Source: Escherichia coli
GTDB taxonomy: Bacteria; Pseudomonadota; Gammaproteobacteria; Enterobacterales; Enterobacteriaceae
NCBI RefSeq assembly: GCF_003334405.1
Contig: NZ_QOWM01000003.1
Strand: one strand, 5' to 3'
Length of the DNA stretch: 64,000 bases
How positions within the stretch are numbered: position 1 is the first letter of the stretch; every line of letters begins with the position of its first letter. The translations under genes and the position numbers were made by a program. The notes under the pieces were generated by a model that was given only the letters and a program-made list of their open reading frames with translations, did no database searches and was not told the DNA's origin. Positions 39,644 to 40,725 of the stretch are shown here, piece by piece.

Positions 39644-40665
39644 CGACGATAGTCGCGGAACGGGCCGTCAGCCACGGAGCGGCGTTCAATCAAGCGCGGA
39701 TGCACTTCAATAGACTGCGGTTCTTCACGTTTGTTGACGATACGATCCAACAGCATGTTGAACGCTGTTTCACCCAGCGAATCTTTTGGCTGATGGATCG
39801 TGGTCAGCGCCGGCGTAAAATAGCGCGCGTTGCGCACGTTATCATAACCGATCAGCGAAACATCCTGCGGGACGCGCAGGCCCATTTCATCAGCAGCACA
39901 AAGTGCGCCCATTGCCATGATATCGCCACCACAGAAGACGGCAGTAGGGCGATGCGGCTGCGACAGGATTTGCTGCATGGCGCGATAACCGGATTCAGGT
40001 TCAAAGTCACCCTGCACAATCCAGCTTTCCGGCACCTTGATCATCGCTTCTTCCATCGCCTTCATAAAACCGGCAAGGCGGCCTGCGCCGGTGTTACGTT
40101 CCAGCGGGCCGGGGATGACGCCGATTTCGCGGTGACCGCGTTCAATCAGATAACGCCCGGCCATGTAGCCGCCTTCGAACGCGTTATCAATGACCGCATC
40201 GGTGAAGTCAGCTTTTGCTTCACCCCAGTCCATGACCACCATTGGGATATGGCGATACTCTTCCAGCATCGCCAGCAACGGCTCTGGGTACTCAGAACAC
40301 ATCACCAGCAGACCATCGACGCGTTTTTGCGCCATCATCGACAGATAAGCCCGCTGTTTCTCAAGATTGTTCCACGCATTGCCCAGAATCAGGGTGTAAC
40401 CTTTCTGGAAGCAATTTTTTTCAACTGCTTCAATGATCTCGGCAAAATAGGCCGCTTCGCTGCTGGTCGCCAGCAAACCGATAGACTTGGTGTGGTTAAC
40501 CTTCAGGCTACGCGCCACCGCGCTAGGGGAGTAGTGTAATTCTTTAATCGCTGCCCACACGGCGTTGCGCGTTTCTTCAGCGACGAAACGTGTTTTGTTG
40601 ATCACGTGTGACACAGTTGTAGTGGAAACGTTTGCTCGTTTCGCTACATCTTTTATTGTTGCCAT
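39640..40665 (-). CDS. purR: purine repressor (LacI family)
   Basis: 341-aa [27 protein letters not shown]... recognised as PurR. Confidence 0.95.
40622..40639 (-). promoter_or_regulatory. PurR operator-like site inside the purR coding region
   Basis: Minus strand ACGAGCAAACGTTTCCAC resembles the PurR box ACGCAAACGTTTTCNT; sits in codons 9-15 of purR. Confidence 0.6.
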
Positions 40666-40709
40666 TCCATTTCACTCCAGACCCTAACTTCAGCTCCTGC
40701 AAAATCGCA

Positions 40710-40725
40710 AGGTAAACGTTTGCCT
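40710..40725 (-). promoter_or_regulatory. PurR operator-like site in the purR leader
   Basis: Minus strand AGGCAAACGTTTACCT, about 45-60 bp upstream of the purR ATG. Confidence 0.6.

Follow-up and report, generated by a model that had tools for sequence, protein, structure and literature searches.

The window analysed here, a stretch of 64,000 nucleotides, is part of an E. coli chromosome. The 501 bp around the two operators that are the subject of this work matched 5,425 of the 5,426 complete E. coli genomes at an identity of at least 95%, and the RefSeq annotation of this region in the complete genomes gives purR and cydH. The open reading frame that starts on the minus strand with the ATG at 40665 encodes PurR. 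Its product reached 711 bits against the NCBIfam PurR equivalog NF007979 (cutoff 501) and it matched the crystallised PurR chains of the PDB with E = 9e-231. In this case the controlled gene also encodes the repressor. The neighbouring genes are punR, punC, cydH and ydhP. purR (minus strand) and punR (plus strand) are convergent and their stop codons overlap within a TTAA at 39640..39643, the two genes having 4 bases in common at their 3'-ends. The features discussed below are collected in the following table.

Features at the purR locus, with positions in the window
Feature	Position	Strand	Remarks
purR coding sequence, 341 aa	39640..40665	minus	open reading frame, NCBIfam equivalog, PDB chains, RefSeq annotation
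Operator O2, GAGCAAACGTTTCCAC	40637..40622	minus	purR codons 10-15 (R A N V S T)
Shine-Dalgarno candidate GGAG	40675..40678	minus	9 nt before the ATG; inside the block TCTGGAGTGAAA, conserved in 80 species
Operator O1, AGGCAAACGTTTACCT	40725..40710	minus	45-60 nt upstream of the purR ATG
Conserved upstream block	40760..40825 (-160..-95 from the ATG)	minus	footprint across 80 species; TTGACC at -133..-128

We took as a PurR operator a 16-bp near-palindrome with a central CpG, the consensus being ACGCAAACGTTTGCGT (written ACGNAAACGTTTGCNT in Cho et al. 2011). O1, in the leader of purR, matches this consensus at 13 of its 16 positions and O2, inside the coding sequence, at 11 of 16; O2 is the downstream site and the distance between the centres of both is 88 bp. 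An earlier sequence-only reading of this DNA had quoted two strings on the purR strand as resembling the PurR operator, and both of them are exactly where it placed them on the minus strand, its range 40622-40725 having the end of O2 and the start of O1 as its limits. It had also assigned the coding-site 18-mer, ACGAGCAAACGTTTCCAC (40639..40622), to codons 9-15. This assignment is right, given that with the ATG at 40665 the 18-mer begins on the third position of codon 9, ends on the second of codon 15 and contains Ala11, Asn12, Val13 and Ser14. Codons 10-15, those under O2, encode part of the N-terminal LacI-type DNA-binding domain (Pfam PF00356).

Regarding the statistical support of the two sites, a search for the perfect consensus palindrome with up to 3 mismatches gave O1 as its sole match, but 37 of 100 shuffled sequences also gave one. 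Such a match is not rare by chance and therefore we used a weight matrix instead, which was built from 27 sites in Table 1 of Cho et al. 2011 (PMC3159470), excluding the purR row, and with which both strands were scanned. O1 scored 21.1 bits, the first rank in the 64 kb window and a value in the middle of the range of the training sites (11.9-24.8). O2 scored 11.15 bits, which is lower than the weakest training site. The likeness to the PurR operator claimed for both strings was thus borne out by the matrix for O1, and for O2 only in part. Actually, O2 was the fifth-best distinct site in the window, where four unrelated places score at least as high, and by motif score alone it is not distinguishable from background. 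The background rate of sites scoring at least as high as O2 was 6.25e-5 per position, which gives 0.019 expected sites within 150 bp on either side of O1. Furthermore, the 10-mer core GCAAACGTTT, with the central CG, is complete in O1 and in O2, and these are its 2 occurrences in the window; the expected number was 0.31, and two or more copies appeared in 4 of 100 shuffles. A chance occurrence of O2 is unlikely, and what supports this site is its position, its conservation and the literature rather than its score.

The weakness of O2 comes from its right half, GTT TCC AC: the codons of Val13, Ser14 and Thr15 dictate these bases and leave the consensus GTTTGCGT out of reach. Two bases in particular keep it from the consensus, base 2 of the Ser14 codon and base 1 of the Thr15 codon. 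Weak auxiliary operators of this type are a practical warning for motif-based annotation, as O2 would be missed by a matrix scan alone.

The second-best PurR-matrix site of the window was found far from purR, at 9600..9615 on the minus strand (AGTAAATCGTTTGCGT, 18.4 bits), in the divergent intergenic region between ydiK (8323..9435, minus) and ydiJ (9824..12880, plus). Assuming that the window is collinear with MG1655, this box maps inside a ChIP-chip region of Cho et al. 2011, 'ydiJ/ydiK' (1,766,545-1,767,225), which appears without a motif in their Table 1.

As for the published evidence for PurR at its own gene, Cho et al. 2011 (PMC3159470, Table 1) list a ChIP-chip region at purR, 1,735,528-1,736,095, which was bound only with adenine, and they give for it the motif AGGTAAACGTTTGCCT at 1,735,808-1,735,823. 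This motif is the plus-strand reading of O1. The window is opposite in orientation to MG1655 and, after mapping the coordinates with AGGTAAACGTTTGCCT as the anchor, the published region covers O2 too. These authors give O1 as the single motif at purR and describe the PurR regions as intergenic only (PMC3159470); ChIP-chip on a 50-bp tiling array cannot resolve two sites as near to each other as O1 and O2. In the comparison with published ChIP data that the sequence-only reading had proposed, O1 is therefore matched as a motif and O2 only as part of a region that spans both. Regarding methods of finer resolution (ChIP-exo, IPOD-HR), the literature that we found did not report PurR occupancy at this locus.

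Autoregulation by PurR is also stated by Cho et al. 2011 (PMC3159470), who, citing earlier work, place its binding at purB and purR within the open reading frame, with elongation blocked there. Two sites are required for purR autoregulation according to the title of Rolfes & Zalkin 1990 (J Bacteriol 172:5758), a paper cited in four others, and the papers citing it locate both operators beyond the promoter and one within the coding sequence. Going by this title and by the citing papers, the 1990 work reports a footprint on each operator and a loss of regulation when each is mutated. Autoregulation of purR from operators downstream of its promoter, as proposed from the sequence, agrees with this published reading (Cho et al. 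2011; title of Rolfes & Zalkin 1990). The E. coli purR operators of Rolfes & Zalkin 1990 and of Meng, Kilstrup & Nygaard 1990 are at the same locus and have the same two sequences, with no difference, and the coordinates of the published sites agree with Cho 2011 for O1 and with PMC5110547 for O1 and O2. Very probably, the two sites described here correspond to O1 and O2, the known operators through which E. coli purR is autoregulated. The autoregulation of purR is present in regulon databases and in genome-wide ChIP data. The abstract of the original work is said to report a two- to three-fold repression, a non-cooperative binding and an affinity for O1 about six-fold above that for O2, and the autoregulation is reportedly lost by point mutations in O2. 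Such a six-fold difference in affinity would fit the difference between the scores. Thus, the control of purR by one operator in the leader and another within the gene is already known and has been in the literature since 1990; the new angle is only the lineage-specific origin of O2 with Asn12, together with the measured synonymous freeze of its codons.

The conservation of the operators was analysed in the purR loci of 80 species from one genome scan, all of them Enterobacteriaceae, in which PurR is 92-100% identical in protein and the coding sequences have a mean nucleotide identity of 84%. A site at the O1 position, at -57..-60, was present in all 80 species and scored 14.1-22.0 bits. The core of O2, GCAAACGTTTCCAC, was intact in 77 of them. 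The sole common variant of O2 was the change of CGA to CGC in codon 10, found in 43 of the 80 species, which raises its score from 11.2 to 13.6 bits. Codons 11-14 (GCA AAC GTT TCC) were near-invariant, with a mean codon entropy of 0.05 bit versus 1.04 for the whole gene. This is the lowest value among the 274 four-codon windows of purR, and it was not reached by any of 100,000 random sets of four codons. That a regulatory site is embedded in the coding sequence, which had been read from the DNA alone, is supported by this freeze and by the core kept in nearly all the species, and O2 represents a clean case of a protein-binding site laid over codons, since the four codons under its core are the most synonymously frozen of the gene. 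Codons 2-24 as a whole also have a lowered synonymous diversity (0.3-0.7 bit versus about 1.1 in the remainder), and part of the constraint on the O2 codons may be a general effect of the 5'-end of the gene. Upstream of the ATG, the footprint across the 80 species consists of three conserved blocks, which are O1, the ribosome-binding region and the stretch -160..-95. Judging from its position, the GGAG in the second of these blocks is likely the Shine-Dalgarno sequence of purR.

Outside this group of species the two operators behave differently. Among the best 120 PurR protein clusters, residue 12 was Gly (AKRAGVS) in about 95 and Asn in 20, and the 20 Asn12 clusters all share 80% identity or more with E. 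coli PurR. We compared the DNA of 7 orthologues with Gly12, all from Enterobacterales families other than the Enterobacteriaceae: Erwinia, Pantoea, Hafnia, Pectobacterium, Yersinia, Providencia and Serratia. O2 was absent from all 7, in which the equivalent stretch scored from -17 to +0.2 bits and the synonymous positions were variable. An O1-like site was found at -60..-62 in 5 of the 7 (12-17 bits) and not in Providencia and Serratia microhaemolytica. O2 was present in two further orthologues with Asn12, and all the orthologues that carry O2 have Asn12 (AAC). Because it is present only where PurR has Asn12 and not the Gly12 typical of the family, O2 looks like a derived feature of the Enterobacteriaceae, tied to the replacement of Gly12 by Asn.

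Other explanations of the two sites have to be weighed against autoregulation by PurR. O1 and O2 could be shared or hybrid LacI-family operators whose conservation comes partly from GalR, perhaps also from GalS, and purR could be linked in this way to galactose or to GalR-mediated chromosome contacts. Actually, GTGGAAACGTTTGCT (O2) and AGGCAAACGTTTACC (O1) are both GalR ChIP-chip sites at ynhF/purR (PMC5110547, Table 3; O2 also in Table 4), and purR is among the six sites validated there by ChIP-qPCR. We also built a GalR matrix from 17 other sites, excluding O1 and O2, and with it O2 was the top GalR-like site of the window with 14.9 bits, O1 having 11.1 bits. Nevertheless, both scores are below that of the weakest GalR training site (16.4), and little or no GalR-dependent expression change was reported for these genes (PMC5110547). 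Furthermore, the right half of O1 is GTTTTCGT in some species, which is nearer to the PurR consensus and farther from the GalR consensus. We consider this explanation unlikely, and the binding of GalR may add to PurR autoregulation, as a cross-talk, rather than replace it. Read on the other strand, O2 gives GTGGAAAC, a GalR-type half-site.

It is very improbable, in our opinion, that O2 is an accidental by-product of encoding the Ala-Asn-Val-Ser-Thr of the helix-turn-helix, without any regulatory role, and that only O1 matters. Its score below the weakest training site and the comparable background matches in the window are what such an accident would give, 8 of the 16 bases of O2 fall on position 1 or 2 of codons for conserved residues, and O1 alone is given by Cho et al. 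2011. However, an accident of coding does not fit the third positions of codons 11-14, which are essentially invariant in the 80 species when the synonymous sites elsewhere have diverged; the same codons vary freely in the Gly12 lineages, and two sites are required according to the title of the 1990 paper. Finally, a constraint at the RNA level near the start codon (mRNA structure, translation initiation or sRNA pairing), instead of a DNA operator, would agree with the lowered diversity across codons 2-24, but it is hardly credible as the cause of the freeze of codons 11-14, given that the four lowest four-codon windows start at codons 10-13, all overlapping O2 and with the minimum exactly at the operator core, that the frozen bases are those that match the PurR consensus and that the constraint is absent from all 7 Gly12 orthologues.

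If purR is autoregulated by PurR through both operators, the mechanism would be the following. PurR is a dimer of the LacI family which, with hypoxanthine or guanine as corepressor, would bind the near-palindrome O1 as the stronger site and, at higher concentration, also the degenerate copy O2 as the weaker one. Both operators being downstream of the promoter, the bound PurR would obstruct the RNA polymerase after initiation, and the outcome would be a modest negative feedback on PurR synthesis. Four elements of this model are taken from the literature or inferred: that each operator is bound by PurR separately, that both are needed, where transcription starts, and the roadblock. O2 is within the coding sequence and hence transcribed; the transcription of O1 rests on the literature. 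The conserved block at 40760..40825 is probably the promoter region of purR, or else a further control region. Downstream of its TTGACC we recognised no -10 element at normal spacing within the block, and a consensus scan of 40560..41000 found no consensus sigma-70 promoter. A looser promoter scan gave candidates that were weak or implausibly distant, such as a perfect TATAAT at -216 with a poor -35, and the literature search for published transcription-start data on purR gave nothing usable.

Among the known systems, the purB operator (He & Zalkin 1992), which acts as a transcriptional roadblock, is like O2 a PurR site within a coding sequence; it acts on elongation, as O2 would, and it is located far downstream of the transcription start. 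Nevertheless, purB carries only one intragenic site, far inside the gene, whereas purR has two sites and its intragenic one is found in codons 10-15, where, unlike the purB site, it overlaps the stretch encoding the DNA-binding domain of the repressor itself. The lac O2 in lacZ and the gal OI in galE resemble the purR O2 in being operators of LacI-family proteins placed in coding sequence and paired with a site near the promoter. Repression in lac and gal occurs by looping between the two sites, through the LacI tetramer in the first case and through GalR plus HU in the second, but PurR is a dimer and is not known to loop. Moreover, the purR operators are separated by a distance that is not a whole number of helical turns (about 8.4). 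We therefore considered a loop between O1 and O2 and regard it as unlikely.

Regarding the origin of O2, the change of a GGN codon to AAC needs two base changes. It is possible, although we would rather doubt it, that O2 is an evolutionary novelty of the Enterobacteriaceae and that it could arise only with an amino-acid replacement in PurR. In such a case, selection at the DNA level for a second operator may have driven the replacement early in the N-terminal DNA-binding domain of PurR, the four codons having frozen afterwards. If this is true, the stretch encoding part of a DNA-binding domain became the target of that same domain. The link between Asn12 and O2 is, however, partly forced by the reading frame. 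We also considered a protein with Asp12 (P0014) as an intermediate between Gly and Asn and rejected it as uninformative: its source is a metagenome contig of 1.6 kb (coverage 0.41), its N-terminal domain differs at other places too, and its DNA has no operator-like sequence.

One assembly of E. coli HB101 (NZ_CP178859.1) carries an IS30 element in codon 7 (GTA) of purR, at about 2856..4078 of the copy of the locus analysed (L091), which corresponds to about 40646 in the window. The element sits between the purR ATG and O2 and puts O2 and what follows of the gene about 1.2 kb away from the promoter, O1 and the start codon. Nonetheless, the annotation pipeline predicted a purR coding sequence in this assembly, starting at the end of the IS30.
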